Notes: generated by a model not told the origin, from the letters alone. A stretch of 64,000 bases of DNA from Terriglobia bacterium (GCA_965198225.1 CBDAOY010000006.1:576001-640000), one strand, 5' to 3'. Shown: positions 3,116-64,000, numbered from the stretch's first letter. Numbers and translations are program-made.

Positions 3116-3289
3116 TCTAGACTTCGTCCCCGGGACCAGAGCCTCTACTGTCGCAGTTTTTCGACTGTCACAATCAGTTTCTAGGCGAGAGCCGGAAAAT
3201 GACGCGCTAACGGAACTGGCCGACGCCGGGGGAGATCGCCTGTGGGCACATGGCTGAAGAACACGAATGCCGTGTCAGTTCAACGCATA

Positions 3290-3368
3290 CGACTACTCGT
3301 CCAAGTGATTCTTCCCGATCGCCGGCTCGATCGATTTGATGGACATGGATATTCGGATCGATCAGCAT
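3290..3368 (+). repeat. Dispersed ~80-bp intergenic repeat, copy 1
   Basis: cgactactcg..caagtg ... cgatttgatggacatRgat...ggatcgRtcagcat, shared with 61565-61651 and (3' half) 13995-14031. Confidence 0.75.
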
Positions 3369-3378
3369 CTGAAAGGCC

Positions 3379-4389
3379 ATGAAGGCGATTGTCCAGGAAA
3401 AGTACGGATCTCCTGATGTTCTGGAACTCCGAGAAGTCGATAAGCCGGCGCTCGGTGATGATCAAGTCCTGGTGCGGGTCCGCGCGGCGTCCCTCCATCC
3501 GGATGTGTGGCATTTCGTGACCGGACGGCCCTATCTGCTTCGCCTCATGGGATTAGGTTTCTCCACACCCAGGAATCCGATACCCGGAACGGACATGGCG
3601 GGGGTCGTCGAGTCCGTCGGCGAGAGCGTGACACGGTTTCGCCGGGGTGATGTGGTATTCGGCGAAACAGCCGTCGGCCATGGATTGACCACCGGGGGTG
3701 CCTATGCCGAATACGTGTCCGTTCGACACGATCAGCTGGCGCTGAAGCCTGAGAACATCACGTTCGAACAAGCCGCCTCGGTACCCACCTCCGGGTTCAT
3801 CGCCCTGCAGAATCTCCGCGGGGAGAGCCATGCACTCCCCGGGAGGAAGGTGTTGGTCAACGGTGCCGGGGGCGGCGTGGGTGTCCTCGCCCTGCAGCTC
3901 GCGAAGGCCTACGGCGCCGACGTAACCGCTGTGGACAGCTCGAACAAGCTCAGCATGCTCGAGTCACTCGGAGCAGATGAGGTCCTCGATTACAAATACG
4001 AGGACTTCACCCAACGCGGCGCTCGCTACGATCTCATCTTCGATGTTCCGGGAAACCACCCGTTCCGTGCCTGCAAGCGCGCTCTCAAACCGGATGGACG
4101 ATACGTGCTGATCGGGCATGAGGGGTTCGGAGCGGCCGGCACGCGTGCGTTCGGAATCTTCCCTCAGTTTTTTAGACTGGTGTTGCTCTCCCGCTTCGTG
4201 AAGCAGCTCCGAGGCCCGGGCATTCCGCTGCCCACGAGGGAAGACGCGATGGCCGTCCTCACGGAATTCCTCGAAGCCGGGAAGATCACGCCCGTCATCG
4301 ACAGTACCTATCCGTTGAGCGAGGTCGGCGCGGCCCTCCTGCACATGATCGAGGACGAACTCCAGGGCAAAGTTATCATCACCCCGTGA
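3379..4389 (+). CDS. NAD(P)-dependent MDR oxidoreductase (zinc-independent alcohol dehydrogenase/quinone reductase-like)
   Basis: MKAIVQEKYGSPDVL start, PGTDMAGVV, NGAGGGVG nucleotide-binding motif, C-terminal GKVII. Confidence 0.9.
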   Translation: MKAIVQEKYGSPDVLELREVDKPALGDDQVLVRVRAASLHPDVWHFVTGRPYLLRLMGLGFSTPRNPIPGTDMAGVVESVGESVTRFRRGDVVFGETAVGHGLTTGGAYAEYVSVRHDQLALKPENITFEQAASVPTSGFIALQNLRGESHALPGRKVLVNGAGGGVGVLALQLAKAYGADVTAVDSSNKLSMLESLGADEVLDYKYEDFTQRGARYDLIFDVPGNHPFRACKRALKPDGRYVLIGHEGFGAAGTRAFGIFPQFFRLVLLSRFVKQLRGPGIPLPTREDAMAVLTEFLEAGKITPVIDSTYPLSEVGAALLHMIEDELQGKVIITP

Positions 4390-4431
4390 AGGGTACTTGT
4401 CTGTTTATGAGATTAAAGGAGGTAATGACAC

Positions 4432-5310
4432 ATGATATGCGTCACAGGGGCCAGTGGGACCGTAAGCAGCGAAGTGATCCGGCAGCTTGCATCGTTAGAG
4501 GCACCCTTTCGCGGTGCCTACTTCTCGAACAAGAAGGCGGAAGCCGCCCGCGCGAGAGGGATCGAGGCCGTCACCATCGACTACGACCAGCCTGAGACCC
4601 TTCGGGCGGCGTTTCAGGGATGTCAAAGACTGTTCCTTCTCGGGCCAAACGCGCTGAACCAATCGGAGCTCGAGCGAAACGCCGTCGATGCGGCGAAGGC
4701 GGCGGGCGTGCAGCACATCGTGAAGCAGTCCGTAATGGGAGCCAGCGACGAGTCATGGAGCCTGGCGAAGATCCATCGAGCCGTCGAGAAAGCGATTGAA
4801 TCGAGTGGGCTGGCATGGACGTTTCTTCGCCCGAATAGCTTCATGCAGAATACCGTGACCTTCATGGGCCAGACGATACGGGCTGAGGCAGCGTTTTACA
4901 GCGCGAGCGGCCAGGCAAGAATCAGCCACGTGGATGTGCGTGACATTGCCGCGGTCGCAGCAAAGGTGCTTACAGGACCCAGCCATGAGGGAAAAGCTTA
5001 CACGTTGACCGGCCCGGAGGCCCTGACCTATGACGAGCTGGCGAGCGAGCTGTCGGAGGCGGTTGGGCGCCCGATCACACACATCAACCTCCCACCGTCC
5101 GATTTGAAGAACGGCATGTTGGCGGAGGGGATGCCGGAGGAGATCTGCAATCGAATGCTGGACCTGGAGCGATACTTTCGCGAGGGCCAGGCGAGTCGCA
5201 TCTCTGATGACATCAAGCAGGTGATCGGACGGGAACCGGGACGACTTGCGGAGTATGTTCGCGAGACCGCCGCCACGGGGGTCTGGGATGCCGCCGAGGC
5301 CACGACATGA
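4432..5310 (+). CDS. Atypical SDR / NmrA-family NAD(P)-binding oxidoreductase
   Basis: VTGASGTVS Rossmann motif, WTFLRPNSFMQN, VDVRDIA; strong RBS aaggagg. Confidence 0.9.
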   Translation: MICVTGASGTVSSEVIRQLASLEAPFRGAYFSNKKAEAARARGIEAVTIDYDQPETLRAAFQGCQRLFLLGPNALNQSELERNAVDAAKAAGVQHIVKQSVMGASDESWSLAKIHRAVEKAIESSGLAWTFLRPNSFMQNTVTFMGQTIRAEAAFYSASGQARISHVDVRDIAAVAAKVLTGPSHEGKAYTLTGPEALTYDELASELSEAVGRPITHINLPPSDLKNGMLAEGMPEEICNRMLDLERYFREGQASRISDDIKQVIGREPGRLAEYVRETAATGVWDAAEATT

Positions 5311-5786: not shown

Positions 5787-5796
5787 TGAGCGTGCC

Positions 5797-7305: not shown

Positions 7306-7469
7306 GAAATAGACCTCCTTACGATGTCGGTTAATGAGCCGCTCCGGCCCCCACGGCCGGTGGTCTCTACCGGTTATACGACACGAGCTTGGTCCCGGTT
7401 GACAAGAATCGCATCGAGGTTTCCGCGCTGGCGACATGCCGAACATGTGGATTCGCACGGCCCGTCGGT

Positions 7470-17942: not shown

Positions 17943-20606
17943 TTATGGCGCCGGCACGAGTTCCTTCAGTTCCTCGAACCAATTCTGCACAACGATCACG
18001 CGCACCGAATCATCCGGATCTTCCTCGACCATCAGGAACCGTCCGTCCGCAGCCACGTCGTATGAGGTTCCCGGGCCGGGGCCCTTCCTGAATCGGTCTT
18101 CTGGGAAGAGTGGTTGCGGGGTTGAGTACCCCAGCGGATCCGTCGTGATTTGGACGGCCATCATCGTGCTGTCACTTCGATAGTAAACCTCTCTCCCGTT
18201 GCGCGCCCACACCGGATCGGTTCCACCTTCGCTCGAAATCTTGGTCCAACTTCCCGAAGTCGATGGGTACGGCTGCACAAAGATCTCGTTCCGGCCTGCC
18301 TCGTCTGAAACATAGGCGATAGACCTGCCATTGGGAGAAAACATCGGCGACATTGCGCCTGCTGGAGTCACGAGGAATTCCTCGACCCCGCCAGCCGACA
18401 ACACCAATATGCCGCTACCGATGCCCGTGCGAGTTCCCGAGAAGGCCAGTGTCCCGTCCGGCGAATAAGAACCGGGTATGTCCGTGCTGTCGTTCGATGA
18501 CGTCAATTGTCGGTCCCCACCGCTTCCATCCACACGAATCGAATAGATATCCGGCTGCAGGCCGGCTATTCTCTCGAACGTGAGCTCGGCTCCATCGGGG
18601 TTCCAGACGGGAAGCATATTAGCGAACCTGTAACCATCAGACGTGGCCCGCCGAGGGTCGCCGGTCACAAGATCGTGAACCCAGATGTCGAACGCCCCAA
18701 AGCCACCGCCGGAGAACCACGCGATGTGGTTGCCTTCCGGAGACAACCTTGGGGCGGCGTAGGGTCCAGCCGGTAGGCCGCGGACGAGCTCAGTCCTTCC
18801 TTCGCGATCCACCCAAACCAGCCTGTGTCGAGGTTCGGCAACGTCACCGGGTACGTACATCAACAGTCCGGTGTCGGAAAAGCTGAACTGCGAGACGCCT
18901 TGTTTTCCCCGCAAGACGTTTTCTACGACCGGGACGGGCGTTCCGGTCACTTCGAGTCGGGCCGGATCGAACGGAACAGCCAGGATCCGGTTGCCCTGGG
19001 CATAGACCAGGTGTCGGGTCGGTGCGTACTGCGGCTGCGTACCGGGCAGCAGAATTCTCGTGCTGGCATCGTCGAATGAGTAGACGGCGATCTGACCGTC
19101 TTCTCCACTCTGCTGTTCCGTCCATACCGTGAAGAGCACAGCCCGACCGCCGGGGAGAAACTTTGGGAGACGGTGACTGGTTTCCCCGTCGGCCAGCGTC
19201 GTCAACTCCTTGGGCTCACCGCCGTCAGCGGACGCCGTCCACAGGGCGGATTGTAAATCCGGTGCAATGACGAGATCGCCGCCCTCCCCCCACGTTATTC
19301 CGCCGAACGGATACGGTCCCGGGATGGCGACCGGAGCCCCACCGGTAATCGGCACTTTCATCAACCCGGTGTTGGTCCCCCTATAGGCCACCCATACTCC
19401 GTCGGGTGAAAACACCAGTGAGAAGGCTGCGCCGACCTCTATCGCTTTCATGTCAGGGGCGTCGAGAGGTCGAAGCAAAAGGCCTCCTGAATCAGGGAAC
19501 GTGCTGTACACGAAGTGGGAGCCGTCGGGAGAAACGAGTACGGCCGGATTTGGGGTCCGGATTGCCAACTGCTGCCTGATTGGAAGCACAAGCTCAGTGC
19601 GAACTACGTTGGCGGGGTCGGGTTCATTCCAAGTCGCGACTGCAGTTATGATGCCCCCGACAACGAGCCCCGCAAGGAGAGCTACTGCGGGTAGTGCGAT
19701 CCAACGGCGACGCTCCGTCGGCCGGTCGCTGTCAGAGGGAGCTTCATCGGCCGGCCCCGTTACCGCTTCGCCGATCTCGATGCGGGCATCCGCCATGTGG
19801 TGCAGGCGGCGATTCCGATCTTTCTGAAGACAGCGTTCGACGAGTTTCCGGACACCGTATGGAAGCGTCTTAGGCAGGGAAGACCAGTCGGGATCGTCGC
19901 GCATGAGGTGCGCAAAGATGTCTCCGACTGTCTCTCCCGCGAAGGCACGACGTCCCGTGAGCACTTCGTAGAGCACACATCCGAACGCCCAGATATCGGT
20001 ACGTGTATCGACCGGATCGCCTCTCACCTGTTCCGGGCTCATATAGGCCGGGGTCCCGCGGATCGTTCCTTCCAGCGTCGGTTCCGGAAGCGTGGCGGTC
20101 GGCATCCGAGACAGGTCGGCTCCGGATGCTTCGACCGCGAAGGCCTTGGCCAACCCGAAGTCCAGGACCTTCACCTTGCCTTCCGGTGTCACCTTGATGT
20201 TGGCGGGTTTCAGATCCCGATGAATCACACCCTTCCCGTGGGCCGCTTCGAGCGCCTCGGCAATCTGGAGAGCGAGTTTGAGGGACTCTTCGACAGGAAT
20301 GGCGCCGCGTTTCAACCGATCCGCCAGCGTGTCGCCTTCGACAAGTTCCAGGACCAGAAAACGTGTCCCGTCGGACTCCTCGAGTCCATGGATGGTGGCG
20401 ATGTTCGGATGATTCAGCGATGCCAGCAGTTTCGCTTCGCGTTCAAACCGGGCCAGCCGTTCCTCTTCCTTCGCGAACTCCTCGGGCAGGGTCTTGATCG
20501 CAACCTCACGTCCGAGCTTGCTATCCCTCGCACGCCACACTTCCCCCATGCCGCCCTTGCCAAGCGGGGAGAGGATCTCGTAGCTGCCGAGTTGGGTGCC
20601 GATCAT
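17943..20606 (-). CDS. Hanks-type Ser/Thr protein kinase with TM helix and TolB/PD40-like beta-propeller
   Basis: LGKGGMGEVW, VAIK, HRDLKPAN, DFG, GTPAYMSPE; SPDG repeats; C-terminal QNWFEELK. Confidence 0.95.
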   Translation of the reverse strand: MIGTQLGSYEILSPLGKGGMGEVWRARDSKLGREVAIKTLPEEFAKEEERLARFEREAKLLASLNHPNIATIHGLEESDGTRFLVLELVEGDTLADRLKRGAIPVEESLKLALQIAEALEAAHGKGVIHRDLKPANIKVTPEGKVKVLDFGLAKAFAVEASGADLSRMPTATLPEPTLEGTIRGTPAYMSPEQVRGDPVDTRTDIWAFGCVLYEVLTGRRAFAGETVGDIFAHLMRDDPDWSSLPKTLPYGVRKLVERCLQKDRNRRLHHMADARIEIGEAVTGPADEAPSDSDRPTERRRWIALPAVALLAGLVVGGIITAVATWNEPDPANVVRTELVLPIRQQLAIRTPNPAVLVSPDGSHFVYSTFPDSGGLLLRPLDAPDMKAIEVGAAFSLVFSPDGVWVAYRGTNTGLMKVPITGGAPVAIPGPYPFGGITWGEGGDLVIAPDLQSALWTASADGGEPKELTTLADGETSHRLPKFLPGGRAVLFTVWTEQQSGEDGQIAVYSFDDASTRILLPGTQPQYAPTRHLVYAQGNRILAVPFDPARLEVTGTPVPVVENVLRGKQGVSQFSFSDTGLLMYVPGDVAEPRHRLVWVDREGRTELVRGLPAGPYAAPRLSPEGNHIAWFSGGGFGAFDIWVHDLVTGDPRRATSDGYRFANMLPVWNPDGAELTFERIAGLQPDIYSIRVDGSGGDRQLTSSNDSTDIPGSYSPDGTLAFSGTRTGIGSGILVLSAGGVEEFLVTPAGAMSPMFSPNGRSIAYVSDEAGRNEIFVQPYPSTSGSWTKISSEGGTDPVWARNGREVYYRSDSTMMAVQITTDPLGYSTPQPLFPEDRFRKGPGPGTSYDVAADGRFLMVEEDPDDSVRVIVVQNWFEELKELVPAP

Positions 20607-20619
20607 TGCGTGGTCCGAC

Positions 20620-20669
20620 TGTAGGTGCGCTCTATGAGCGCACACGGGCGGTCATAGACCGCCCCTACA
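20620..20669. repeat. GTAG-type REP doublet (REPIN-like)
   Basis: tGTAGgtgcgctc-tat-gagcgcac and inverted partner tGTAGgggcggtc-tat-gaccgccc, each a hairpin preceded by GTAG. Confidence 0.8.
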
Positions 20670-28428: not shown

Positions 28429-28519
28429 AACCAGCCCACGCGACACCCGCCAACGTCGAGGAGGCGCTGGCTCGGCGTCCAGGCGCGAACAGAGCCTGCT
28501 TCACCTGAGCGTAGTGGTC

Positions 28520-33251: not shown

Positions 33252-33387
33252 TCATCAAGGGAGACGCGATCGAAATCGTAAGCAACTTGCTCGTACGGAG
33301 TCAGCGCATCTTTCTTCCTTTTGAATCATGATTTTGCGAATGGCGCCACGACTTGCACGCCGTCTCACTTGGGTTCACCTTTCCGTG

Positions 33388-41568: not shown

Positions 41569-41737
41569 GCGGCTCCTTCTCGTGTCGATCGGTCGCTCGG
41601 AAGAGGGGCTTGTCGACGAGATGCACTTTTCCGTATCGTCGACTTGAACGAAGCCGCTGGCGCGGCGGACGCTACGCGTGTGCTGAGCGAAGAGTGATGA
41701 GCCCCCGATAGAGTGTGAGCCTCACAAGGAGGCTCAC

Positions 41738-42628
41738 ATGACGAAGCTGCGACAACGGATGCTGGAGGAACTCCAGCGCCGGAACTACTCACCCGCTACG
41801 ATTCGGCTGTATCTTCACGCGGTCGAAGACTTCGCCCGCTACTTCGGGAAGTCCCCCGACAAGCTCGAACAGGAACAGATGCGGCAGTACCAGCTGCATC
41901 TGCTTCAGGAGCGCAAGCTCGCTGTCGACACCATCATCGGACGGATCGCCGCACTCCGGTTCTTCTACGTGAAGGTGCTTCGCCGTCCCTATCACCAGGT
42001 CGATCTGGTCTATCCGAAACAGCCGTCCCGGTTGCCCACGATTCTGAGCGAAGAGGAAGTGGCGCAACTGCTGGCCTCCGCCAACAGTGCCTATCACTTC
42101 GTCATCCTGATGACCTTGTATTCGACGGGACTGCGGCGGGCCGAGCTGTGTCGTCTGAAGGTCGAGGACGTCGATAGCGAACGCATGGTGATCCATGTGA
42201 GGCAGGGTAAAGGCAATCGCGACCGCGACGTGCCGCTGTCACCGAAACTGCTGGAAGTCCTGCGCGACTACTGGCGTTGGCGGAAACCCGGCGAGTACCT
42301 CTTCCCCAGTTTGCTCCGGACCCGGCCCGGACAGCCCATCGATGTGAAGACGGTTTGGTACGCCGTCCAACAAGCCGCCCAACGTGCCGGCATCAAAAAG
42401 AAAGTATCCCCACATACGCTGCGCCACAGCTGGGCCACCCACCTGCTGGAGAGGGGAACCGACCTGCGAACCATCCAGCTCCTGTTGGGTCATGTCGATC
42501 TGGAAGCGACGACCCTCTATCTCCATTTGTCTCAGGCGCACATGCAGCGCGTGGTGAACCCGATCGATTCTCTTCCGGTTCCCGATCTGGGACCGTCTCC
42601 CCGTCTGAGAAAGAAGAAAGGCGAATGA
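41738..42628 (+). CDS. Tyrosine recombinase/integrase with N-terminal SAM-like domain
   Basis: RNYSPATIRLY, TGLR (R), QGKG (K), HTLRHS (HxxR), LLGH, TTLY (catalytic Tyr); aggagg RBS. Confidence 0.95.
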   Translation: MTKLRQRMLEELQRRNYSPATIRLYLHAVEDFARYFGKSPDKLEQEQMRQYQLHLLQERKLAVDTIIGRIAALRFFYVKVLRRPYHQVDLVYPKQPSRLPTILSEEEVAQLLASANSAYHFVILMTLYSTGLRRAELCRLKVEDVDSERMVIHVRQGKGNRDRDVPLSPKLLEVLRDYWRWRKPGEYLFPSLLRTRPGQPIDVKTVWYAVQQAAQRAGIKKKVSPHTLRHSWATHLLERGTDLRTIQLLLGHVDLEATTLYLHLSQAHMQRVVNPIDSLPVPDLGPSPRLRKKKGE

Positions 42629-43794
42629 GCCGGCCCGCCGTCGAGGTGGCCGACATCGTCCGCGCCCGGGTTCGAGGTTTCCTCCAGCGTCACCGCCTCG
42701 GCATCCAGAAGCTCAAGGTCCTGCGCGCCATCCTGAACTGTCGTACTGCGGCTCTGGGTGGCCACATCGACCGGTGTGCCGATTGTGGCCGGGAGTCCGG
42801 AATCTCGTTCAACTCCTGCCGCAACCGCCACTGCCCGAAGTGTCAGACCCAGGCCCGACGACGGTGGCTCGAAGCACGAGAAGCCGAACTGCTGCCCACC
42901 CCCTACTTCCACGTCGTGTTCACCGTCCCGCACCAGTTCCATCCGTTCTTCTTCCACAACCCTGCCCTACTCTACAGCCTGCTGTTTCGCAGCGTGGCCG
43001 ACACGATGATCGAGGTGGCGGCCAATCCGAAACGACTCGGCGCCCGGATCGGCTTCTTCGGCATCCTGCATACCTGGAGTCAGAACCTGGAGTTCCATCC
43101 CCACATCCACTGCGTGGTACCGGCCGGCGGACTGGCTCCGGATCAGTCCCGTTGGATTCCGGGTTCTGGGCGCTTCTTCCTCCCCAAGCAGGTGCTCGCC
43201 CGAGTCTTCCGTGGCAAGTTCATCGACGGGCTCGGGCGAGCGATCGCCGACGGTTCGCTCGAACTGTCCGGCTCGATTCGACCCTTCGGCGAACCGCAAC
43301 ACTTTCGGCGGTTCCGCCGCCAGATCCATTCCCGCAACTGGGTCGTCTATATCAAACGACCCTTTGGTGGCCCCGAACAGGTGCTCCGCTACCTGGGCCG
43401 CTACACCCATCGGGTCGCCATCTCCAACCATCGATTGATCTCGTTTGACGGTAACCGGGTCCGGTTCCGTTGGCGGGATTACCGCAATGGCAACAAGAGT
43501 CGCATCATGACACTCGCGGCCGACGAGTTCATCCGACGGTTCTTATTGCACGTTCTGCCGAAGGGCTTCGTCCGCATCCGACACTTCGGATTCATGGCCA
43601 ACTACCGCCGGTCGGCCGCCTTCGCTCTCTGTCGCCAACTCCTCGATGCCATGCCGAGGGTCGAATCTGACGAAACCACCACCTCGAACTCTTCCTGGTC
43701 GTGTCCGCACTGTCAGGGACCGATGACTCTCATCCAACGCTTCACCGCTCTGCAACTCGTAGCGAGGCTCGCCTTCCAATGCGATACGTCCTAA
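42625..43794 (+). CDS. IS91-family rolling-circle (Y2/HUH) transposase
   Basis: Zn-binding CRT..LGGH..C..C..SCRNRHCPKC, YFHVVFT, HTW, HPHIH (HUH), YLGRY (YxxxY), RIRHFG; ATGA overlap with the integrase. Confidence 0.95.
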   Translation: MSRPAVEVADIVRARVRGFLQRHRLGIQKLKVLRAILNCRTAALGGHIDRCADCGRESGISFNSCRNRHCPKCQTQARRRWLEAREAELLPTPYFHVVFTVPHQFHPFFFHNPALLYSLLFRSVADTMIEVAANPKRLGARIGFFGILHTWSQNLEFHPHIHCVVPAGGLAPDQSRWIPGSGRFFLPKQVLARVFRGKFIDGLGRAIADGSLELSGSIRPFGEPQHFRRFRRQIHSRNWVVYIKRPFGGPEQVLRYLGRYTHRVAISNHRLISFDGNRVRFRWRDYRNGNKSRIMTLAADEFIRRFLLHVLPKGFVRIRHFGFMANYRRSAAFALCRQLLDAMPRVESDETTTSNSSWSCPHCQGPMTLIQRFTALQLVARLAFQCDTS

Positions 43795-44216
43795 TCCTCC
43801 TTCACAAACCGACGACCGACGTGCGGTTCAGCCACGTCCTCGCCGGAGTGTGCCTCCGCTGCAAAATCCCCTCAGATCCCGTCCTTTCAACCCACCGATT
43901 CCCCGACCCAACTGCTTTCCGATTCACACCATCGACGCGGTCATCGACCGCCGGTCCCCCTCCTCGCCCCAACGCCACTCCAGATCCGGCCCGCTTCCGG
44001 CTACTTTCTCCATAGCCCACCGCGTCCGCCGCATTCGGCCAGCGCCCTCCTTCAAGTCTTGTTATCGAAACTGCCGCGGTGGGAACTTCTCGCTCATCCT
44101 GTGGCCGCGCTCGCCGCGGCACTTCCGATGAACGCTAACGACTATACGCCCGAGTGACTGCCTGCATGCCGGCCAAGCCGGCTCCAGCCGCTTGTTATCC
44201 GCCGTCCTCCGTACCG

Positions 44217-44759: not shown

Positions 44760-45047
44760 ACGGAGTGCAAGTGTATCGCTCTACGTTTCAATCCTGAGAG
44801 GAATCGGGCGAGAGCCGGCGCGATGTACTCTTGCAGGAATCCTCATCTCCGTGAAGGCGATCTACACGTCCATGTGGATTGAACACTCCGGCGAACTGAG
44901 ATGTCTGGTGGGGTGAGAAGGCTCGCACAGCGAGGGCCAGGGCCTTCGCACCTCAGCCCGATCGTGACTGCGGTCGGCCGTGGTGTTCATTGTCGAAACG
45001 AAAGATAGGATGATTCGGGTGTTTCGACACGTACTATTGTTGAGAAC

Positions 45048-51814: not shown

Positions 51815-52317
51815 TTAGTAGCTTGCGCTACGGAGTCCAGCATACAGGCCAGAACGCAGGAGCTGCAAGAAGACGATCCACGGCCATATCTTCCTCCCGC
51901 CAAATGACAAAGAGGTATTTCACTGGCAATCATGTCTTGATGGACGGGTGCGACCGGCTCGAACTCAAGAGTCGTCGACAGAGCCGAACGTGCTGGCGAG
52001 GTGTTCCTCGACCGCGAAGCCAGCAGCGGACGGAAGAGCACAAGCGGCCTGAAAGGCCACATCGTCGATACCGGTAACGGAGTATCGGCGACCATACGGA
52101 CAAGTGAAATAGCTAAACGCTGCGTAGGAAGAGTCGGCGACGGTCTTCGCGGGATTGGCTGGTGACCGGTCGTTACCAGGGACGTGCTCCGAGCCGCTAC
52201 GCCAGACGATGTGGCACAGCAAGCTGCTCGAATCGCCGATCGGAGCGCAAGTTGCCGACACCGGGATCAACCTTGAGACCGACTTACGTGGCGTCAGAAG
52301 TCGCCCACAAGGGCTAG

Positions 52318-53854
52318 GAGTCTGCGCGGCAGAGCGCAAAGAACTCGGACTGATTGGGATTTGAGAGGGTCTTCGGAGGAGAATCGACCGATTCTTCCGA
52401 TACGACGAGTTCAGAGTTGTACGGACACCCGTAATTGGCCGTGTATCGGGTCTGCCGGGTTGCGGTTTTCCGGATTATGCCCATTCGATCTTCCCGTTCA
52501 TCCGTCGTAAGTTCACCGCCAGAGTGACCAGATTCCACTCCCCGGTCACTTTGTCCAAACCGCGTAGACTGAACTGTCGGAATCCGAGCACCGACTTGAT
52601 CCACCCGAAGGGCGGCTCACCAATGTGCTTTCGGGCCCGGTAGCGGTCACGCCCACGCTTGGTTTTCATCTTTCTCATCATCCGACCAACAGCGGTGTCT
52701 TTGGGTGGGAGTGGGGCACGGGCGAGATCCTTCTCGCGACCCATCGCAACATACCCGTCAATCTGACGTTGTTCCAACATCCCCAGATTTGACTCGGATC
52801 GATATCCCGCATCGGCCAGCACGCGGTCGGGACGCTCCCCCAGATTGTCGCTCAACGCATCCAGCGTGGGTTCCAACTGCCCCACATCCGATGCATTGTC
52901 AGTCACCGTTGTTGCCACGATGATCCGGGCCTGGGAATCCACCACCGCTTGCGCGTTGTAGCATTGCTGGAACCCTTCGGTGGAGGTCTTCATCATCCGG
53001 CTTTCCGGGTCGGTGAAGTTGTCCTGGGCCGTGGGTTTAGGTTCCCCCATGGGACGTTTGAATGGCTTCTTTCCGCATCCGGGTTTGTGATCTTTGGTGT
53101 TCCGTCCCGCTTCCTTGTCCGCGGCCATCTGACGTTCTTCGAGCCGCTTCATGGCCGCCTGTATCGTGGCCAGGCGCTTCTTGCGCGTGGCCAACCCGTC
53201 GGGCAGTTCGTCTCCGCGCCGGTCCTTGCCGTATCGCTCGTCTTCGTCCTCATCGGTCGCCTCGGCCCGGTTCAACAGATCCCGAATCTGTTCACCCAAT
53301 TCGGTCTCCTGCTTTTTCATGCGTTCGTAGCTCATCGCTTTGCGTTTGCTTGCATTCGCCCGCATCTTGGTCCCGTCCACCGCCACGGTTCCCATCTTCA
53401 CCAGTCCCGCTTCCCGCGCCATCATCACCACTTGCACAAACAGGTTTCCGAACTCCTCAAGATGCAGTTTGCGAAAATCCGAGATCGTTCGGTGCGCCGG
53501 AAAGTTCTCCGCTCCCAACATCCGGAACGCTACGTCGTCGGTCAACTTCGCCGCGATCTTCCTGGACGAGAACACTCCGGTCGCGTACCCATAAATCAGC
53601 ACCTTCACCATCATCCGCGGATCAAACGCCTGATTGCCCGGACCCTCGGTTCCATACCGCTGTTCGAACGCGCTCAAATCCATCGCGTCCACCGCGTCCG
53701 ATATGAAGTACGACAGGTGATCTTCGGCCAACCAATCTCTCAACGACGGTGGCATCAGCAGTGTTTGTTCTGGGCTATAAGTTCGATAGGTTCGTGCCAT
53801 GACATATCTTCGATCTTTATCCGCCCAATTCCGGTCCTTCTGCCGCGCAGACTC
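52318..53854 (-). mobile_element. Complete IS1182-family insertion sequence
   Basis: Perfect 16-bp terminal IR gagtctgcgcggcaga; CTAG on both sides (52314-52317, 53855-53858). Confidence 0.92.
52475..53800 (-). CDS. IS1182-family DDE transposase
   Basis: LMPPSLRDWL, PRMMVKVLIYGY, SSRKI, VDGTKMRANAS, TDPESRMM, ADAGY, EPPFGWIK. Confidence 0.93.
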   Translation of the reverse strand: MARTYRTYSPEQTLLMPPSLRDWLAEDHLSYFISDAVDAMDLSAFEQRYGTEGPGNQAFDPRMMVKVLIYGYATGVFSSRKIAAKLTDDVAFRMLGAENFPAHRTISDFRKLHLEEFGNLFVQVVMMAREAGLVKMGTVAVDGTKMRANASKRKAMSYERMKKQETELGEQIRDLLNRAEATDEDEDERYGKDRRGDELPDGLATRKKRLATIQAAMKRLEERQMAADKEAGRNTKDHKPGCGKKPFKRPMGEPKPTAQDNFTDPESRMMKTSTEGFQQCYNAQAVVDSQARIIVATTVTDNASDVGQLEPTLDALSDNLGERPDRVLADAGYRSESNLGMLEQRQIDGYVAMGREKDLARAPLPPKDTAVGRMMRKMKTKRGRDRYRARKHIGEPPFGWIKSVLGFRQFSLRGLDKVTGEWNLVTLAVNLRRMNGKIEWA

Positions 53855-53976
53855 CTAGCGAGCGTGTCTTCATCTGCCTTCCCGCGTCCTTGTCAAAAGG
53901 GTTTCTTGGCTGTACGCTGCCTCGTGGCCCACCAGGGAGCCTGTATGTCAGATTCTTGGTGCATGAAGGAGACGCG

Positions 53977-55185: not shown

Positions 55186-55740
55186 AGTGCGGTCCCGGGG
55201 GGCTTGACCACCACCGGTTCGGAAGAGATGCTCTGTGCTCATGGCGTCAGTGGAGATGGGCGGGCCCACGACCGTGGAAACCCAATTGGCACACCGCCGG
55301 CACGACAAGTCGAACCCCCTTTCAAAAACGGAGGCTCTCAACCACGATCCACGTTATCGTATAGGCATTACAGTCATGTGGATTGTCGCGGGCTCGGTTT
55401 CTGCTAGCTATGTTAACGCGCGGACCATCGGCATCGAATCGACTTGCGGGAAAAACCATCAGAAATCGTTAGGCCGTCCGGCGTGAGGTCGTAGTCCCTG
55501 TATTGATTGAGTAGGATGAACCCTTTCAAAGTAACACCGTGTTAATCTACCAACGGACAGAGTCCGTTCCTTCCAGAAGATCCGTCGTTTGCAATCCCGC
55601 CCCGGCCGGTCTATCCTCAAAATGATCTTTTTCTGAAAGGGTCTCTTTTTTCTACGATTCTTTCCTCGACTGTCTTTCACGTCACCCATTCTCGTGACCG
55701 TCGACCGTCAAGAATAAGAATCCCCGATTCAGGATCTCTT

Positions 55741-56546: not shown

Positions 56547-56848
56547 CCGCTGTTTCCGCTTCCGATGAGTTCAATATGTACCGAAGGTGACATTCAAACT
56601 CATCTTGACGGGGCAGCTTACGCCAGCCAGCTGAACGGGTCCCGTTGAGTAAGGGTGGATCGGTAACGATCGGTCGCCTTGTGTTTAGGAACGCTCGATT
56701 GACCTGCCGCTGACCAGCCTGCACGTGTTACTGCCTAGCTAGTGTGACATCTGGATGGCCCTGTATTCATGGGGTCTTCGTGAGAATCCACTTTTCCGTG
56801 TCGCCGACTTTACGGCAAGTCGGGGGCAGAAGGCTCGAACACAGGTCC

Positions 56849-56935: not shown

Positions 56936-56989
56936 GCTACTCGTAGATGTGCATGGGCGCTAACAAGAAAAGTGTCCACTGCATTGACC

Positions 56990-57142
56990 TCAAGCCCCTT
57001 GCCTCGTACTCTTCTTCTCCGGATTTGCTCGTGCGGTTCGTTCCTGCAGTGCTTTTCGAACTTCCCGGATACGTTCTCTCATCCGAAGTTTTGCCTTGCG
57101 CAGACGGTTGAAGCGCGCCTTGTCACCATTTCTTGCGGACAT
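56990..57142 (-). CDS. 50-aa highly basic small protein (absent from ORF track)
   Basis: MSARNGDKARFNRLRKAKLRMRERIREVRKALQERTARANPEKKSTRQGA; GAGGTG RBS. Confidence 0.6.
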   Translation of the reverse strand: MSARNGDKARFNRLRKAKLRMRERIREVRKALQERTARANPEKKSTRQGA

Positions 57143-57625
57143 CTGTCACCTCACATAATTCAGCATTCAGATTCTAGTCATTTGTGAACGAATAGAAAGT
57201 GTCCTCTTGCTAACGGAACGACAAAGGCCACTGGATGAACATTCAGACCCCCGGCTTTCCCGACGAGATCCACAAGGAAGTATCGGCGACATATCAGGAA
57301 TTAGCGGGAGTCAGTCGTTCGGTGCGCGTACTTGCGACGATTGATTCGACGAAACTAACGAATACAGGTTCGAGTAGGACTCTCGCGTTCGGGCTGTTGT
57401 TCCATGAGTACCAAACAGACGGAATCGGATAAAACTTAGCGATGAGGTGCTTGAGCTCCTCAAGGCCAGACGGTTTGTGTGACGTTGGCGCGTCAAGCAA
57501 GGTTTTCGCCTTCGCGGGGCGGGGGGTCACTCTTGCGGAGCAGACCCGAGCGCCGACAGCTACACTAAAACATTGTCACGCTCGGCCAACGTTATTGTAT
57601 TCTCTGTCCGGACTAATCGGAGGGA

Positions 57626-60176: not shown

Positions 60177-61490
60177 TCACTCCTCGTCGACTTCACCGAC
60201 GCCGAGAAGCTCGTTTCTGGCGCAGACGACGAAATCAGTCTCGAGCATGATGAAATTGAAGGCGCGTGCCTGTTTCTTCGGAAGCCGGGAGGTGGCGAAC
60301 TGACCGAGGGAGCGGTCGAGAAGGCGCAGCGCGCGTCGCAGATCCTCGTTCTCGACAGCGGCGGCACCGCGATCGGCAGCCAGCGCCTGGCTCGTCCAGA
60401 TGGCCATCGGGTAATTGATGGCGAGTTTGGGAATCGCTTCGACGAATGGCAGCGACTGCTCGCCGGCGAGAAGGTAGCGTTGGCCGATGATCTTGGCACA
60501 CAGGAAGCTCTTGATCCTGCTCGCACCCTCCCGCTCGACAAAACTTCCGTCCACCTCAGTAATCTGTTCGAACGTGGCTGTCAACTCCCTGTTGTCGACG
60601 TAGGGCCTCTGCTCCGCCTTCCGGTAGCGATTGCCGATAGCGATGCGTTTTCTCTTCGCCGCCTCGAGCCTGTGGCCGCGCAGCAGATCTTCGTTTGACG
60701 TTGTCGGATTGAGCACCAGATAGAGCCATTGAAAGAAGATAGCTCGCTGCGTGCGGTCCATCTGTCCTTCCCACGGCATCTTGCTTATCTGGATTGGAAG
60801 CCCCTGAGAAAGGGCTTGGCGCAGTTGGGCGGCCGACTCGGTTGAGGGGTCTCCCGTGGTCGCCAGTCGGCTGTACTCCAGCAGGCAGCGAACACGATCG
60901 AAGAGGGACAACGAAGTGTCGTCGAGGAATGCGAGCATGTACTGCTCGATCTGCCACAGGATCTCGTCACTCAAAGCGGACTTTTCGTTGAGGTGGTGCT
61001 TTCGAGGTCGCGGGCTGCCCAGTTCGGTTTCGAGCAAGAGGCTCCACTCCGGGACTTGAGCCTTGAGTTCGGCCCCTTGACCGAGGCTGACAGCGCGACA
61101 GGAGAAGGCACAATCGACCGCGATGCGCTCCTTCAGAGGATAGAAGTGGAAGGGGTACATCCTGCACATCAGCGGCTTGCGCTCGGCACCGAAATGCTCG
61201 TGAATGCGGCACTGGCGGTCGGATCCGAGATAGATGCATGCACCATCCTCGCGCTTCTTCAAACGCCGCCCCGATCCCCCGCTCGAACCCGTAGCCGAGA
61301 CGCCCGGGGAGACACCAACCAGATCGTCGGCGCGTCCGCGCCAGTCGAGGCTAGCCAGCGACTCCGCCTCCTCGGGCGTCAGCAGGATGTTGGTGTTGAC
61401 GCAGCAGTCACCACACCCACTACACGTGAAACGGAGGTCGGACGGATAGTCGAAATCTGCAGTCACGAGGCAAGTCTCCCTCCCCAGCAT
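60177..61490 (-). CDS. YkgJ-family (CxxCxxCC) cysteine-cluster protein with C-terminal extension
   Basis: FTCSGCGDCC, GACIYL..QCRIH, KPLMCRMYPF. Confidence 0.82.
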   Translation of the reverse strand: MLGRETCLVTADFDYPSDLRFTCSGCGDCCVNTNILLTPEEAESLASLDWRGRADDLVGVSPGVSATGSSGGSGRRLKKREDGACIYLGSDRQCRIHEHFGAERKPLMCRMYPFHFYPLKERIAVDCAFSCRAVSLGQGAELKAQVPEWSLLLETELGSPRPRKHHLNEKSALSDEILWQIEQYMLAFLDDTSLSLFDRVRCLLEYSRLATTGDPSTESAAQLRQALSQGLPIQISKMPWEGQMDRTQRAIFFQWLYLVLNPTTSNEDLLRGHRLEAAKRKRIAIGNRYRKAEQRPYVDNRELTATFEQITEVDGSFVEREGASRIKSFLCAKIIGQRYLLAGEQSLPFVEAIPKLAINYPMAIWTSQALAADRGAAAVENEDLRRALRLLDRSLGQFATSRLPKKQARAFNFIMLETDFVVCARNELLGVGEVDEE

Positions 61491-61564
61491 AGTCGATCAG
61501 CGGCGAGTCGAACTCTTCGAGACCTTGAATCTCCTACATCATCCACATCTACGGTTAGCCGGCA

Positions 61565-61651
61565 CGACTACTCGCTCAAGTGGACTGTTCGGGATCCCCG
61601 GTCTTGATCAGAACCGATTTGATGGACATAGATGTCTGGATCGGTCAGCAT
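61565..61651 (+). repeat. Dispersed ~80-bp intergenic repeat, copy 2
   Basis: Homologous to 3290-3368. Confidence 0.75.
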
Positions 61652-62030: not shown

Positions 62031-62031
62031 C

Positions 62032-62113
62032 AGCATCGCTTTCCGTCTCCCTCCTCGACCTCGCCCGCAAGACCCATCGGCGATGGTGCCGATAGCACTG
62101 TTAAAGGCCACTT
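62032..62113 (-). mobile_element. Partial inverted copy (left ~82 bp) of the 28.1-kb MITE
   Basis: Reverse complement matches ~28155-28236 with only a few substitutions. Confidence 0.88.
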
Positions 62114-62418
62114 AGACTCCCGCGGGACGCTCAGGTCACCAGTCCAGGCCGAAATTCGTTTTGTATTGCTGTCGTTTCCTTCTTCGCCTGTCACTTCTGG
62201 ACTAATCGTCGCACTCTGGGCACTCGGCCGGCTGTGGGCGAGCTCACATTCGGACAATGTCCCATAAGTTGACTTGGACGTTTGAGTAGGGGCGATTGGA
62301 TGTACTTAGATGGATCTGCTCGCTTACGCGACACGAATTCTCTCGGCGCTGAGCGAGCCGATGGTTAGAATCTCCCAATGCTCGGGCCGTCCGGCCCTGG
62401 CGCAAGTGAGGTGAACCC

Positions 62419-63873
62419 ATGGTCAGAACTAAATCCGTTACGATAGGAGCCGCCCTCGTCGGAGTCCTGGCGTTGTTTCTCGCGGCAGCTCCGGTCGAGG
62501 CGCAGCTCGCGAGCCCGAGTGAGGACCCGGATGTCCAGGGGGCGATCAGGCTCTTCTCTGCGTGGCTCGACGGTCAGGTCGCCTATCGACAGCTTCCCGG
62601 CGTGGTGGTGGGCGTGGTGTCCGACCAGGAGCTCGTGTGGGCCCAGGGCTTCGGCTTCGCGAACGTCGATGCGAAGCGACCAATGGCGCTGAACACGCGG
62701 TTTCGCATGGCGTCGCACAGCAAGCTGTTCACCGCGACCGCGATCATGCAGCTGCGCGAGCAGGGCCGGCTCAGGCTCGACGATCCGGTGTCGGAGTATC
62801 TGCCCTGGTTCCGGGTGCAGTCGGCCGCCCAGGACGATCCGCCGATCACTATCGAGCACCTGCTCACCCACAGCTCCGGCCTTCCGCGCGAGGCAGGATC
62901 GCATTGGAGCGACTGGGAGTTTCCCACCCCCGAGGAGCTGAGAGAGCTCATCCCGAAGCGGCAGGCGCCATTCTCACCCGAGACCCGCTGGAAGTACTCG
63001 AACCTGGCGTACACGATCGCCGGGATGATCGTCGAAGCGGTGAGCGGCGAGATGTGGGCGCAATATCTTCAAAACAACATCTTCGATCCGCTCGGGATGT
63101 CGGCATCGAGCGTGGACCGCGACGTCGCAAGCTTGGCCACGGGCTACAGCCGCCGCATGCCGGACGGGTCGCGGCAGGTCATTCCCTTCGTCGATGCGCG
63201 CGGGATGGCCGCGGCAACCGGCCTCACGTCCTCGGTCGAAGACATGGCGAAGTTCGTCTCGGCCCAGTTCCGGAAGGGGCCGAGGGGTGGCGACCAGATT
63301 CTCAGCACCGCTTCTCTGCGGGAGATGCATCGTGTGCGGATGCTCGAGAGCACGTGGACCCAAGGGCAGGGGATCGGGTTCGCGGTCAGGCGCGTCGGGG
63401 ACAAGCTGTACGTGGGGCACGGGGGCGGCTATCCGGGCCATACGACGAACACCCTGATCCAGCTCGACTCGAAGGTAGGCGCGATCGTCCTGACGAACAC
63501 AAACGACTCGAATCCCGCGGACATCGCGCGACAGCTCATGAGCACGGTGGGCGAAGCCGTTGCCGAGGCGACCGCGACCGAGCCTGCCGTCCTCACGTGG
63601 GACCCGGCATGGGAGCGGTTCGCAGGGCTCTACCGGAGAATCGGTGGGGATAGACAGGTCGTCCTCCTGAACCAGCGCCTGGTGGTGATGACCCCAAACG
63701 CGCGCAGCATTGACGATTCGGTCGGGCTCGAGCCGATAGGCGACGGTCTGTTCCGTCTGACCGCTCCGACCGGAGGGGGGGCGGTCGGAGAGGTTGTCCG
63801 GTTCGTCGAGGAGAACGGACAGGTGGTCCGGATGATCATAGGGGATTCCTACGCGGATCGGGTCGGGAACTGA
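62419..63873 (+). CDS. Secreted serine hydrolase, beta-lactamase class C/AmpH-like
   Basis: RMASHSK (SxxK), LLTHSSGL, YSN, GHGG; signal peptide. Confidence 0.92.
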   Translation: MVRTKSVTIGAALVGVLALFLAAAPVEAQLASPSEDPDVQGAIRLFSAWLDGQVAYRQLPGVVVGVVSDQELVWAQGFGFANVDAKRPMALNTRFRMASHSKLFTATAIMQLREQGRLRLDDPVSEYLPWFRVQSAAQDDPPITIEHLLTHSSGLPREAGSHWSDWEFPTPEELRELIPKRQAPFSPETRWKYSNLAYTIAGMIVEAVSGEMWAQYLQNNIFDPLGMSASSVDRDVASLATGYSRRMPDGSRQVIPFVDARGMAAATGLTSSVEDMAKFVSAQFRKGPRGGDQILSTASLREMHRVRMLESTWTQGQGIGFAVRRVGDKLYVGHGGGYPGHTTNTLIQLDSKVGAIVLTNTNDSNPADIARQLMSTVGEAVAEATATEPAVLTWDPAWERFAGLYRRIGGDRQVVLLNQRLVVMTPNARSIDDSVGLEPIGDGLFRLTAPTGGGAVGEVVRFVEENGQVVRMIIGDSYADRVGN

Positions 63874-64000
63874 TCGCTGTGAGGTGAGCTTCAGAGGGGC
63901 GAGTTCCCCTTCCGCGATCGGCTGTCCGCCAAGCGGGGCTTCCGGACACAACCCACTCTGGTTGTATGGCGGCTCCACGTCCATGTGGATGCTGTAGGTT

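Follow-up and report, generated by a model that had tools for sequence, protein, structure and literature searches.

A polar palindromic junction site lies at the seams of mosaic gene islands in a soil acidobacterium

Integron attC core sites have the canonical consensus GTTRRRY and its complement, and folded attC sites are imperfect hairpins in which a spacer stays unpaired and some bases are extrahelical. Xer/dif-type core sites set two inverted arms, bound by a Xer-family recombinase, on either side of 6-8 central bp. REP/REPIN sequences are short palindromes dispersed in hundreds of copies, with inverted doublets and a single-copy Y1 HUH gene. The IS1111-attC group, group IIC-attC introns and REP-targeting insertion sequences (IS) such as IS1397 home to structured repeats. 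IS91-family elements transpose by rolling circle via single-stranded circles and leave no target duplication. ISfinder lists IS91-family members with an integrase-like open reading frame (ORF), although our literature search found nothing on such members. In IS91 itself, the tetranucleotide targeted beside oriIS is similar to the one at which terIS is cleaved, and the orf121 stop overlaps the transposase start (PMC13181058). The GIsul2 integrase is reported to move an ISCR-related unit, CR2-sul2, via att core sites (PMC9376610).

Here we describe a junction site, called PAL, that resembles several of these systems in part, and an IS91-family element associated with it in a Terriglobia bacterium. 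The window is the whole stretch of DNA analysed (64,000 nucleotides); genome-wide scans and relatives extend the comparison.

Structure of the junction site

An initial annotation had singled out a recurrent 18-bp motif, CTAYWCG-N5-GTGGAT, and this motif is real. With at most 2 mismatches allowed, the window contained 18 matches where 3.3 were expected (mean of 3.28 over 100 dinucleotide shuffles, maximum 12, with 0/100 attaining 18). Nine of the ten copies listed were recovered in place, namely 3293, 33435, 44142, 44862, 55347-55364 (minus strand), 56937, 61541-61558 (minus strand), 61568 and 63973, and the weaker copies at 44856 (minus strand) and 55366 were present in a weight-matrix scan. 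The tenth copy, at 7435, has 4 mismatches by reading and a score of 12.9, but it still appears to be the right-hand part of a full, though degenerate, palindrome. The copy near 62285 (minus strand) is a degenerate half-site with a 3-base insertion (by reading). The annotation had placed the copies outside intact genes, and 0/17 half-sites fell within an ORF with a Pfam match; their placement at joins between unrelated blocks was supported.

The 18-mer had been taken as a free-standing site, and here the annotation required correction: the motif is one half of a ~40-bp palindromic junction site with direction, the PAL. Its consensus is ATCCAC-N5-CGTRTAG, a 4-nt centre (N)CG(N), and CTAYACG-N5-GTGGAT, where the centre reads GTCG on one strand (GTCG, then C); a CAC-N6-GTG dyad lies inside each half. 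The outer boxes, GTGGAT/ATCCAC, are the best-conserved positions in a weight matrix built from 29 sites. The sites in the window are as follows, with the strand given for single features.

3293-3310, plus strand: half-site with a diverged solo oriIS-like end (..caacgcatacga) before it and a C-type arm after it
7395-7452: full but degenerate PAL that includes the 7435 copy; by eye, the weakest member
33373-33452: split PAL, halves 33373-33390 (minus) and 33435-33452 (plus) with 44 bp between them, including a 24-nt palindrome equal to this genome's CTAG MITE terminal repeats in paired form
33453-33490, plus strand: A-type arm (tgaaacagtctggcgaatcggagag..), kept beside ori-type halves in G000 and other genera
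41621-41638, minus strand: half-site on the ter side of the IS, score 23.8, abutting the terIS end, with a short D-type arm to its left
44142-44159, plus strand: half-site on the ori side of the IS, abutting the oriIS end
44839-44879: unoccupied PAL, ATCCTC-N5-CGTGAAG-GCGAT-CTACACG-N5-GTGGAT
52092-52109, plus strand: single half-site of ori type (..ggcga, then CCATACG..), score 15.6, beside a DDE insertion sequence
55347-55383: unoccupied PAL whose halves, 55347-55364 (minus) and 55366-55383 (plus), are separated by 1 nt
56786-56803, minus strand: half-site whose counterpart on the plus strand has degenerated through the loss of ~37 bp that are present in the copy at C6:341491 (by eye)
56937-57285: 350-bp unit with inward-facing halves (56937 plus, 57268-57285 minus), present in three genomic copies; the left half adjoins a kinase 3' remnant
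61541-61585: unoccupied PAL with a 9-nt spacer, CCGGCACGA
63935-63990: PAL whose left half is weak (ACCCAC-N5-TTGTATG) and separated by GCGG from the right half, 63973-63990; it lies 60 bp past a serine-hydrolase (Pfam Beta-lactamase) gene

Another unoccupied PAL lies beyond the window at C9:773124-773170, and others occur in other genera (G012, G005, G021 and G046). An arm that stands empty at C9:773149 in G000 is occupied at locus L001 of another genome.

The N5 stretches are non-complementary in G000 and G012 and nearly complementary in G046, and bulges are absent. Unusual hairpin stability was not seen in G000 (fold z of -0.7 to -1.0; -2.0 to -2.9 in G012 and G046), and no compensatory changes were seen between the left and right boxes of single insertions. 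PAL symmetry is central and not terminal; a MITE has inverted repeats at its outer ends and a target duplication, with copies at unrelated places.

The IS91-family element and its landing position

The window contains a 2.5-kb element that abuts half-sites at both ends, in keeping with the link to an integrase/IS91 element that the initial annotation had drawn.

41640-44142, plus strand: IS91-family element, delimited by tblastn copies and by identity boundaries among copies
41738-42628, plus strand: tyrosine recombinase gene, 296 aa, Xer/IntI-like, Pfam Phage_integrase and SAM_4
42625-43794, plus strand: Y2 HUH transposase gene, 389 aa, Pfam Y2_Tnp (1.7e-62) and Zn_Tnp_IS91 (1.6e-30)

The transposase matched the NCBIfam IS91 family transposase model NF033538 at 432.6 bits (cut-off 125), with H-x-H and Y-x-x-x-Y visible in its sequence. 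The element therefore has the Y2 HUH transposase with N-terminal zinc-binding domain that defines the family, and it also has the subterminal palindrome at oriIS (GCCGCG..CGCGGC, ending ~20 nt before the right end), comparable to the GC-rich inverted repeat of IS91, IS801 and IS1294. Taken as a whole, the joined ends of the element are not unusually structured (fold z -1.2 to -1.6). In the PDB the recombinase matched a XerC-like protein (3e-43) and IntI4 (2e-36, in two pieces); among NCBIfam models it scored 223 bits for XerA and 203 bits for TIGR02249, under the cut-off of 265, and it is without the IntI-specific extra domain (TIGR02249 positions 178-237 unmatched). Its catalytic R, H-x-x-R and Y residues are visible. 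The two genes overlap, the stop of the first lying across the start of the transposase gene. The upstream ORF of IS91 is arranged in a similar way (PMC13181058), but the upstream ORF here encodes the 296-aa recombinase and not Orf121. ISCR elements share the transposase superfamily and are likewise associated with mosaic regions and truncated genes, but they have neither a recombinase gene nor a defined palindromic landing site; they capture genes by one-ended rolling-circle transposition.

Nine near-identical genomic copies of the element (transposase 99.5-100% identical, tblastn) are sharply bounded, by CGAC.. at the left end and ..ACGAC at the right end, with flanks that vary between copies. 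In the window, the terIS (left) end begins CGACTTGAAC at 41640 and the oriIS (right) end reads ..GAACGCTAA at 44138; positions 44139-44142 then hold CGAC, whose final C doubles as motif base 1. CGAC was found at 7/7 intact left ends and after 9/9 right ends. Motif halves face outward on both sides, and on 8/9 ori sides and 6/7 ter sides the flank matched the motif better than 99% of random positions did. These boundaries place the IS family exactly at the PAL centre, in one orientation. The annotation had placed the breakpoint nearer CTA, and two lines put it directly beside CTA: identical IS copies stop at ..ACGA, before the C of the motif, and the homology of paralogous outward flanks breaks at -3, -5, -5 and -16 relative to the motif, ending at the PAL centre. 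Motif-matching flanks were found at 4/8 and 3/7 ends of an 86% IS type and at 2/6 and 3/6 ends of a 54% type. The 63%-identity types had the motif at 0/20 and 0/17 flanks, and at 0/20 and 0/19; they do not use the motif, and by eye they have another flank pattern and often lie head to tail or beside oriIS-like ends.

The motif was also considered as part of the element's own terminal inverted repeats, with which the inverted halves directly outside both ends would agree. However, copy identity stops at ..ACGAC and CGAC.., full unoccupied sites exist, and the adjoining 18 bases vary, in N5 and at conserved positions, beside nine identical copies, which contradicts this reading and leaves it scarcely credible.

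GTCG at the ter end and GTCG beside the ori landing match the known IS91 target rule, in which the tetranucleotide beside oriIS repeats the terIS one (PMC13181058). The tetranucleotide is CGAC/GTCG rather than CTTG/GTTC, and the insertions, instead of using any four bases that match, lie in palindromic surroundings of ~40 bp. A 3-4-bp target duplication, or the overlap of a tyrosine-recombinase crossover, would account equally well for CGAC at both ends, and the ends therefore single out no one enzyme.

The initial annotation had further described left and right flanks that reassort around the motif. All of the classes were found: aacgcWWacga at 3282 and 44131; ..cggcacga at 33423 and 61556; a ~60-bp flank common to 3293 and 61568, with a third copy at C6:327488; tgaaacag.. 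at 33435 and 44862; and gMtgtagg at 63973 and 61558 (minus strand). The left flanks, however, consist mainly of IS ends (two of them, oriIS and terIS) and short PAL spacers, and the right flanks are conserved arms rather than random cargo ends. In some cases the arm is a kinase paralog's 3' end; another has promoter-like sequence, the D-type arm bearing a sigma-70-like -35/-10 pair ~100 bp from the motif (by eye). This pair, together with the palindromic, intergenic character of the site and its dyad in each half, would suit a role in regulation, as an operator, promoter element or terminator common to island genes. We regard that as very improbable, given that gene distance and orientation vary, halves face gene 3' ends as well as promoters, the T-tract is absent and the hairpin weak, an Rfam search of the window gave no match, and in nine places identical IS copies split the site at its exact centre.

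Islands, relatives and competing readings

Scanned across the whole genome with a 23-position weight matrix, PAL sites exceeded control level: 48 sites at score 18 versus 2 in reversed or complemented controls, and 31 versus 0 at score 22. At score 14.5, 50/84 sites fall in five islands that make up 265 kb of 6.41 Mb (4%). Inside each island PALs point one way, with polarities of 7:1, 7:1, 6:2 and 13:1 across four of the islands, and they divide off gene segments of 0.35-10 kb, which hold several genes on both strands with their own promoters. Only 3/26 intact kinase paralogs have a site near the stop, and PAL is therefore no general trait of kinase-family spacers.

Like attC sites and CALINs, PAL is an imperfect palindrome with two box pairs 5 nt apart and a short variable centre, and co-oriented copies lie between gene segments with an IntI-related recombinase nearby. 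PAL is nevertheless not a canonical integron attC site. In the 29-site matrix its outer boxes are ATCCAC/GTGGAT rather than the canonical core sites, bulged bases are absent, and insertion occurs at the centre and not in an outer box. Although co-oriented sites separate segments in four islands, these segments, unlike integron cassettes, are multi-gene, on both strands and up to 10 kb with own promoters. Nor do PALs form an array beside an intI with attI: the genome's only IntI-family gene (TIGR02249 above cut-off; C6:488798-489706) has one in-frame TGA and lies 87 kb before the window, with no matrix sites of at least 14.5 within 50 kb of it.

Among relatives, the transposase co-occurs with the motif, being carried by 8/10 motif-positive versus 6/30 motif-negative genomes; G002 has 47 transposase matches and 0 exact motifs. 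Synteny breaks, which had been predicted to fall at the motif, gave a mixed result: homology with G003 stops at 44840, within the PAL at 44839-44879, but two PAL-free boundaries also break and an IS-holding PAL is unbroken. At the orthologous DPPIV/AAA-gene junction of two sister species, G002 and G003, PAL arms and halves are missing. In the single case in which an orthologous junction was compared, the difference from the sister sequence was a replacement and not merely an interruption. Island genes are dispersed in the two sister species and single-copy in G000. Junctions across IS ends, and circular or empty forms, were not seen among the short assembled contigs of public runs, and no cassette was seen in two contexts except within larger duplications.

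Part of this would be expected if PAL were an intergenic repeat of the host, akin to REP/REPIN sequences or small MITEs and merely preferred by the IS, with the mosaics arising from ordinary rearrangement and IS-IS recombination and with no movement of segments. Synteny scrambled at PAL-free boundaries, single-copy island genes and the missing circular or empty forms all favour this reading; inverted doublets of a short repeat recall REPIN doublets, and other IS families target REP or attC hairpins. Like the repeat-homing elements, the IS takes an exact position and one orientation in a repeated palindromic site, with a different chemistry (HUH Y2 plus tyrosine recombinase) and another target. 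Against a host repeat stand the number and placement of copies (~30-50 only, in five IS-rich islands and not genome-wide), their strong co-orientation inside islands, the patchy occurrence in relatives that tracks the transposase, the absence of arms and halves at the sister-species junction, and the 3/26 kinase paralogs. REP/REPIN systems differ further from PAL, whose ~48 sites at score 18 lie mostly in five islands and whose associated HUH gene encodes a Y2 transposase and has multiple copies. We consider a host repeat unlikely.

Co-oriented arrays, with halves bounding segments on both sides, would also fit a dif/attC-like recombination site for the element's tyrosine recombinase, at which one-PAL circular cassettes would integrate and excise while the Y2 transposase moved the IS only. 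An 11-6-11 geometry fits if the centre is GTCGCC, with inner arm bases conserved; the recombinase is XerA/XerC-like with its catalytic residues, and joining the two ends of a segment would re-form a PAL. PMC9376610 reports site-specific movement of an ISCR-related unit by an integrase, and GIsul2 there offers a tyrosine integrase with att cores bounding a unit that carries an IS91/ISCR-type gene; its integrase, however, lies in a genomic island and uses a single chromosomal attB, whereas here the IS itself carries the recombinase and there are many sites. The number of PALs also departs from Xer/dif, and the best-conserved boxes, ATCCAC/GTGGAT, fall outside the 11-bp arms. The joined IS ends do not resemble PAL, and the IS termini are dissimilar to its arms. 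With neither circles in the public-run contigs nor cassettes in two contexts outside larger duplications, this reading seems decidedly improbable.

Proposed assembly of the islands

We favour, as the probable account, PAL as a polar palindromic junction at the centre of which IS91-type elements with a recombinase and a Y2 transposase insert, serial insertion building the islands. The Y2 transposase would nick 3' of GTCG on one strand and insert single-stranded circles there, each insertion regenerating GTCG. The conserved arms on both sides would be read as double-stranded sequence by a protein, with the recombinase that the element itself encodes as the leading candidate, since four bases suffice for classical IS91 relatives that lack one.

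The origin of PAL arms that flank a gene has no account within this mechanism, which counts against it. Our literature searches found no published description of a PAL-type site.

The initial annotation, which had seen in the motif the crossover or end sites of a cargo-shuffling system, is partly supported as a whole. Cassette-like movement of gene segments between PALs is suggested, and segments with a PAL at both ends may move as units. In this soil acidobacterium PAL sits where the pieces of patchwork islands meet, islands that would have been built by serial, oriented insertion at PALs.

Occurrence of the motif and its relation to an IS91-type element

Allowing up to two mismatches, the 18-bp motif CTAYWCG-N5-GTGGAT (the half-site) occurred 18 times in the window, compared with a mean of 3.28 in dinucleotide shuffles, none of which (0/100) reached 18. 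Nine of the ten copies reported in the initial annotation were among these matches; the tenth, at 7435, has four mismatches but resembles a full site in decayed form, of which it would be the right half. The motif had been described as lying outside intact genes, and none of the 17 accepted window half-sites overlapped an ORF with a Pfam match. An Rfam search of the window at gathering thresholds gave no matches. Across the whole genome under study, in which the window corresponds to C6:576001-640000, 51 clustered sites were found at up to one mismatch. A genome scan of the kind the initial annotation proposed, using a weight matrix of 23 positions derived from 29 sites in the islands, gave 84 sites at score 14.5 (16 in the control), 48 at score 18 (2) and 31 at score 22 (0); 50 of the 84 fall in five islands making up 265 kb of 6.41 Mb. 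The finding as such is real, and the interpretation first given to it, a junction motif with reassorting flanks at which an integrase/IS91 system shuffles cassettes, is correct in part.

The window holds a 2.5-kb IS91-family element (hereafter IS) with the following features.

Features of the IS in the window
41738-42628, tyrosine recombinase ORF (Pfam search)
42625-43794, Y2 HUH transposase ORF (Pfam search; NCBIfam IS91 family transposase, 432.6 bits)
41640-44138, IS element, followed by CGAC at 44139-44142 (sharp identity ends among copies)

The recombinase most resembles XerA/XerC-like proteins and integron integrases (PDB 4a8e, 3e-43; IntI4, 2e-36 in two pieces; NCBIfam NF040815, 223 bits; TIGR02249, 203 bits, under the cut-off of 265) and lacks the stretch matching TIGR02249 positions 178-237, the IntI-specific insertion. 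Its stop overlaps the transposase start, and its gene holds the place of orf121 of IS91, which has the same position and whose stop overlaps the tnpA start, as stated in excerpts of PMC13181058. By its proteins the element belongs to the IS91 family, and it appears to follow the tetranucleotide logic of that family; it differs in the recombinase it carries and in its long palindromic context. Nine copies are present in the genome, with transposase identity of 100% in eight and 99.5% in one. Alignment of the copies with their flanks showed a right end (oriIS), ..GAACGCTAACGAC, common to all nine and a left end (terIS), CGACTTGAAC.., common to seven, the remaining two being left-truncated. A DDE insertion sequence (IS4/IS5-like, DUF772 + DDE_Tnp_1) lies at 52311-53871, with ~15 copies at >99% in this genome and ~10 at 83% in the sister-species genome G003.

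On either side of the IS, the bases immediately outside its identical part match the motif when read outward, and they vary among copies. Against a null of 20,000 random genome positions, each taken at the best of nine offsets, 8/9 ori-side and 6/7 ter-side flanks exceeded the 99th percentile, and five and six, respectively, the 99.9th. Because the flanks match the motif yet vary between copies, the motif is not in the transposed DNA; judging from these alignments, it forms the surroundings of the inserted IS. Unoccupied versions gave the whole site, a ~40-bp polar palindrome that we named PAL: ATCCAC-N5-CGTRTAG, a short centre, and CTAYACG-N5-GTGGAT.

Unoccupied PALs in the genome under study (window positions unless a contig is named)
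44839-44879, centre GCGAT
55347-55383, centre G
61541-61585, centre CCGGCACGA
63935-63990, centre GCGG
C9:773124-773170, centre TCGC
C6:341469-341508, centre CCGA

Full PALs with 4-nt centres were also found in other genera of the family (G012, G005, G021 and G046). The motif is one of the two arms of a polar palindrome, at once a junction site and the place where recombinase-carrying IS91-type elements land.

A strict PAL-core pattern matched in nine of 34 genomes of the family, while its reversed control gave 1-2 matches in 11 genomes; only G012 (4) and G046 (7) stand out, and the pattern had no match in the genome under study at up to one mismatch. Among 40 sampled relatives, ten (the genome under study counted) contained the exact motif, with three control hits in all, and 14 contained the transposase. 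Both occurred together in eight, the motif alone in two and the transposase alone in six, although these relatives are not independent samples. Scored with the same matrix and percentile, an 86%-identity IS type had 4/8 ori and 3/7 ter flanks above the 99th percentile and a 54% type in G005 had 2/6 and 3/6, whereas two 63% types had none (0/20 and 0/17 in G002; 0/20 and 0/19 in G015). By eye, the 63% types show another flank pattern, often beside oriIS-like ends. Elements of this kind at four loci of G002 (L033, L034, L036, L040) and one of G015 (L061) often stand exactly head to tail, with an overlap of three bases between the first copy's oriIS end and the terIS end of the copy that follows; other copies adjoin diverged solo oriIS-like ends. 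A locus in another relative (L073, G020 C26:60959-61570) has three exact motif matches with a 297-bp period and identical flanks, and looks like a tandem repeat within a coding region, not PAL sites.

The centre of the site and targeting of the element

Classical IS91 elements choose their target by four bases, and we know of no role for the integrase-like gene that some of their relatives carry. Excerpts of PMC13181058 describe IS91 relatives as inserting, with no target duplication, beside a tetranucleotide (CTTG, GTTC, GTCC) that adjoins oriIS and is required for further transposition, with terIS cleaved at a similar tetranucleotide, CTCG. On the bottom strand of the element studied here, the ter end reads ..GTTCAAGTCG| and the sequence just outside the ori end ..CGTATAGTCG|, suggesting that GTCG plays both tetranucleotide roles; empty PALs have GTCG|C at the centre. 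These junctions are equally compatible with a target duplication of 3-4 bp, or with crossover by a tyrosine recombinase within an overlap of 6 bp (GTCGCC, 11-6-11 geometry). The position of this IS subgroup, always at one point of a long polar palindromic site, points to recombinase-guided targeting. Recombinase-less Y2 transposases, sought in the same genome for comparison of target rules, were represented by one distant intact copy only. A genomic-island integrase has been described as moving an ISCR-related unit by site-specific recombination (PMC9376610); a published account of the targeting seen here was not found in the literature on IS91-type elements, integrases and attC.

Flanks, arms and polarity

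Of the flank classes of the initial annotation, those on the CTA side proved to be IS ends, other halves of PALs or spacers. The IS contributes gaacgctaacga as its oriIS end and cgttcaagtcgc as its terIS end, reading outward; unoccupied PALs contribute flanks like tgtatagtcgc, which are their opposite half; ..cggcacga is part of longer spacers, and the flank at 3282 is a diverged solo oriIS-like end. The PAL at 33373-33452 has 44 bp inside, including a 24-nt palindrome (33391-33414) that occurs dozens of times, the ends of a 273-bp CTAG MITE included, where it forms paired terminal repeats. This spacer is therefore taken as a small MITE-derived insert, and the same MITE-end palindrome rules out a miniature IS91 origin end. 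One copy of the ~273-bp non-coding MITE lies at 28151-28430, and ~70 copies at 95-99% identity are present genome-wide.

The GTGGAT-side flanks are conserved arms. A- and B-type arms derive from Ser/Thr-kinase/PD40 paralogs reading toward the site (C-terminus ..NWFEELK..VPVP), of which they contain the final codons and the 3' untranslated sequence, the gene often being reduced to a remnant; A-type arms recur in nearly the same form in G012 and G015. The C-type arm (~60 bp) is common to 3293, 61568 and C6:327488. The D-type arm (~80 bp) ends in a second inverted half-site followed, by eye, by a sigma-70-like promoter pair reading away from the site; a 53%-identity IS at C6:643617-645585 lies at this second half, and a D-type arm that is empty in the genome under study (C9:773149) has an 86%-type IS at exactly the same point in locus L001 of another genome. 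Halves of ori type (preceded by CGA) have A, B or C arms and N5 like TCCNN, whereas ter-type halves (preceded by GTCG) have D arms and N5 like GAAAN, and the PAL is asymmetric in consequence.

Copies of the C-type arm (3330-3375, 61605-61650, C6:327520-327560) include the imperfect palindrome GATGGACAT..ATGTCYGGATC. In the direction that leads to the site, they vary by eye mostly at third codon positions, so this arm may be a short coding remnant. Within the kinase/PD40 family, 26 long ORFs end in ..NWFEELK(E/Q)RVPVP, one of them at 17943-20645 (minus), and short 3'-end remnants are scattered beside PAL halves. The PAL is not the usual spacer of these paralogs: a site lies within 250 bp of the stop in only 3/26 intact ones. 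We also rejected the arms as decayed IS ends, a likeness seen by eye (A arm with terIS, D arm with oriIS): local alignments against 300 shuffles gave z of -1.7 to 2.7, and fewer than 10 shuffles reached the score in only 1/24 comparisons.

With polarity defined by the strand carrying CGA|C and nine unclassifiable sites left out, the sites of an island pointed mostly the same way: 7:1 on C4, 7:1 at C6 290-360 kb, 6:2 in the window's island, 13:1 on C9 and 1:2 on C7, counts that are not all independent because each IS adds two sites. A single repeated unit of 350 bp accounts, with its copies, for three of the exceptions. Four pairs of sites shared the outward flank at 85% or more and not the inward flank, their homology stopping 3, 5, 5 and 16 bases before the motif, at the PAL centre.

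Gene segments between sites and comparison with integrons

The pieces that PALs delimit in the window's island are 0.35 to 10.5 kb long and, except for the IS, the MITE and the 350-bp unit, single-copy in the genome under study. Those for which the two complete sister-species genomes (G002 and G003) have orthologs (85-93% identity) map there to scattered places. In both sisters the serine-hydrolase gene (62419-63873) stands beside the ortholog of C5:490-492 kb and the CxxCxxCC gene (60177-61490) beside that of C5:459-461 kb, so that the arrangement in the genome under study is the derived one. Gene segments may have moved through PALs. At the two ancestral C5 loci, examined for scars, only single-gene blocks align with G003.

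Synteny breaks at the motif, a check named in the initial annotation, were found in part. Homology of the AAA piece with G003 stops at 44840, in the first bases of the next PAL, but synteny is also broken at PAL-free boundaries between the S9 peptidase, amidohydrolase and amidase genes (25-33 kb), and the DPPIV peptidase/AAA pair stays adjacent in the sisters across the IS-holding PAL. Both observations count against cassettes, as does our finding no piece in two different PAL contexts outside larger duplications. At the DPPIV/AAA junction the spacer of both sisters is a different one, with a GC-rich hairpin and with neither the IS nor the D-type arm nor either half-site. In G003 this spacer (L095 5560-5860) also holds a further small mobile element, a ~330-bp insert bounded by inverted CTAGTGGTCCCCGCCAGA-type ends.

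Six public runs, kept only as short assembled contigs, contain 82-95% of sampled words. In four runs aligned to the window, contigs cross both IS junctions, and in one (X3) depth was ~159 over the IS and 12.6 over its flanks. No excision joint was found in these short contigs; the skips seen (41492 to 43929 and 41790 to 44110) have sides of <30 letters and lie away from the IS ends.

Cassette-like traffic through the PAL is plausible but unproven. We consider it unlikely that soil Acidobacteriota possess a gene-cassette system, integron-like in its working and of another build, in which PAL-bounded segments with their own promoters form co-oriented arrays through the IS91-type enzyme pair. In such a system the Xer/IntI-like recombinase would read the PAL arms, the Y2 HUH nuclease would cut the central GTCG, the PAL would re-form on circularisation of a segment, and the enzyme pair would stack segments in co-oriented arrays.

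In outline the PAL is like integron attC, since both have two box pairs with 5-nt spacers, a centre that is short and variable, and arrays of co-oriented copies; its outer boxes differ from the canonical attC core, and it has no bulged bases. Its hairpin fold is weak in the genome under study (z of -0.7 to -1.0) and stronger in G012 and G046 (-2.0 to -2.9), and the N5 stretches pair only in G046. The PAL is not a canonical attC site, nor is it a dispersed repeat of REP-like kind. The nine exact interruptions by the IS do not fit an operator or terminator, and neither does the variable gene geometry, seen in place of the fixed promoter distance that the initial annotation had named as the mark of a transcription-factor site.

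The only IntI-family gene of the genome (C6:488798-489706, minus; TIGR02249, 446.5 bits, the only one above cut-off) lies 87 kb before the window and has one in-frame TGA. No obvious attC array was noticed in passing beside it. In the surrounding locus (L104, 4805-5770 and 5741-7359), a ~1.5-kb insert flanked by 61-bp perfect direct repeats abuts its 5' end, and a long ORF contains a perfect 139-nt tandem duplication (17969-18246; C6:501968-502245).

If the cassette reading were true, it would give a job to the long-unexplained integrase of these IS91 relatives and one way for chromosomal genes to gain recombination sites. PALs are also a potential means, other than integrons, of arriving at cassette-like arrays. 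The PAL is a concrete DNA substrate for testing recombinase-guided targeting, and a marker for such islands and for IS ends in metagenome-assembled genomes. PALs lie along the joints of accessory islands across several genera belonging to a single acidobacterial family, and may thereby help to explain how genes are gathered and rearranged in large soil genomes.
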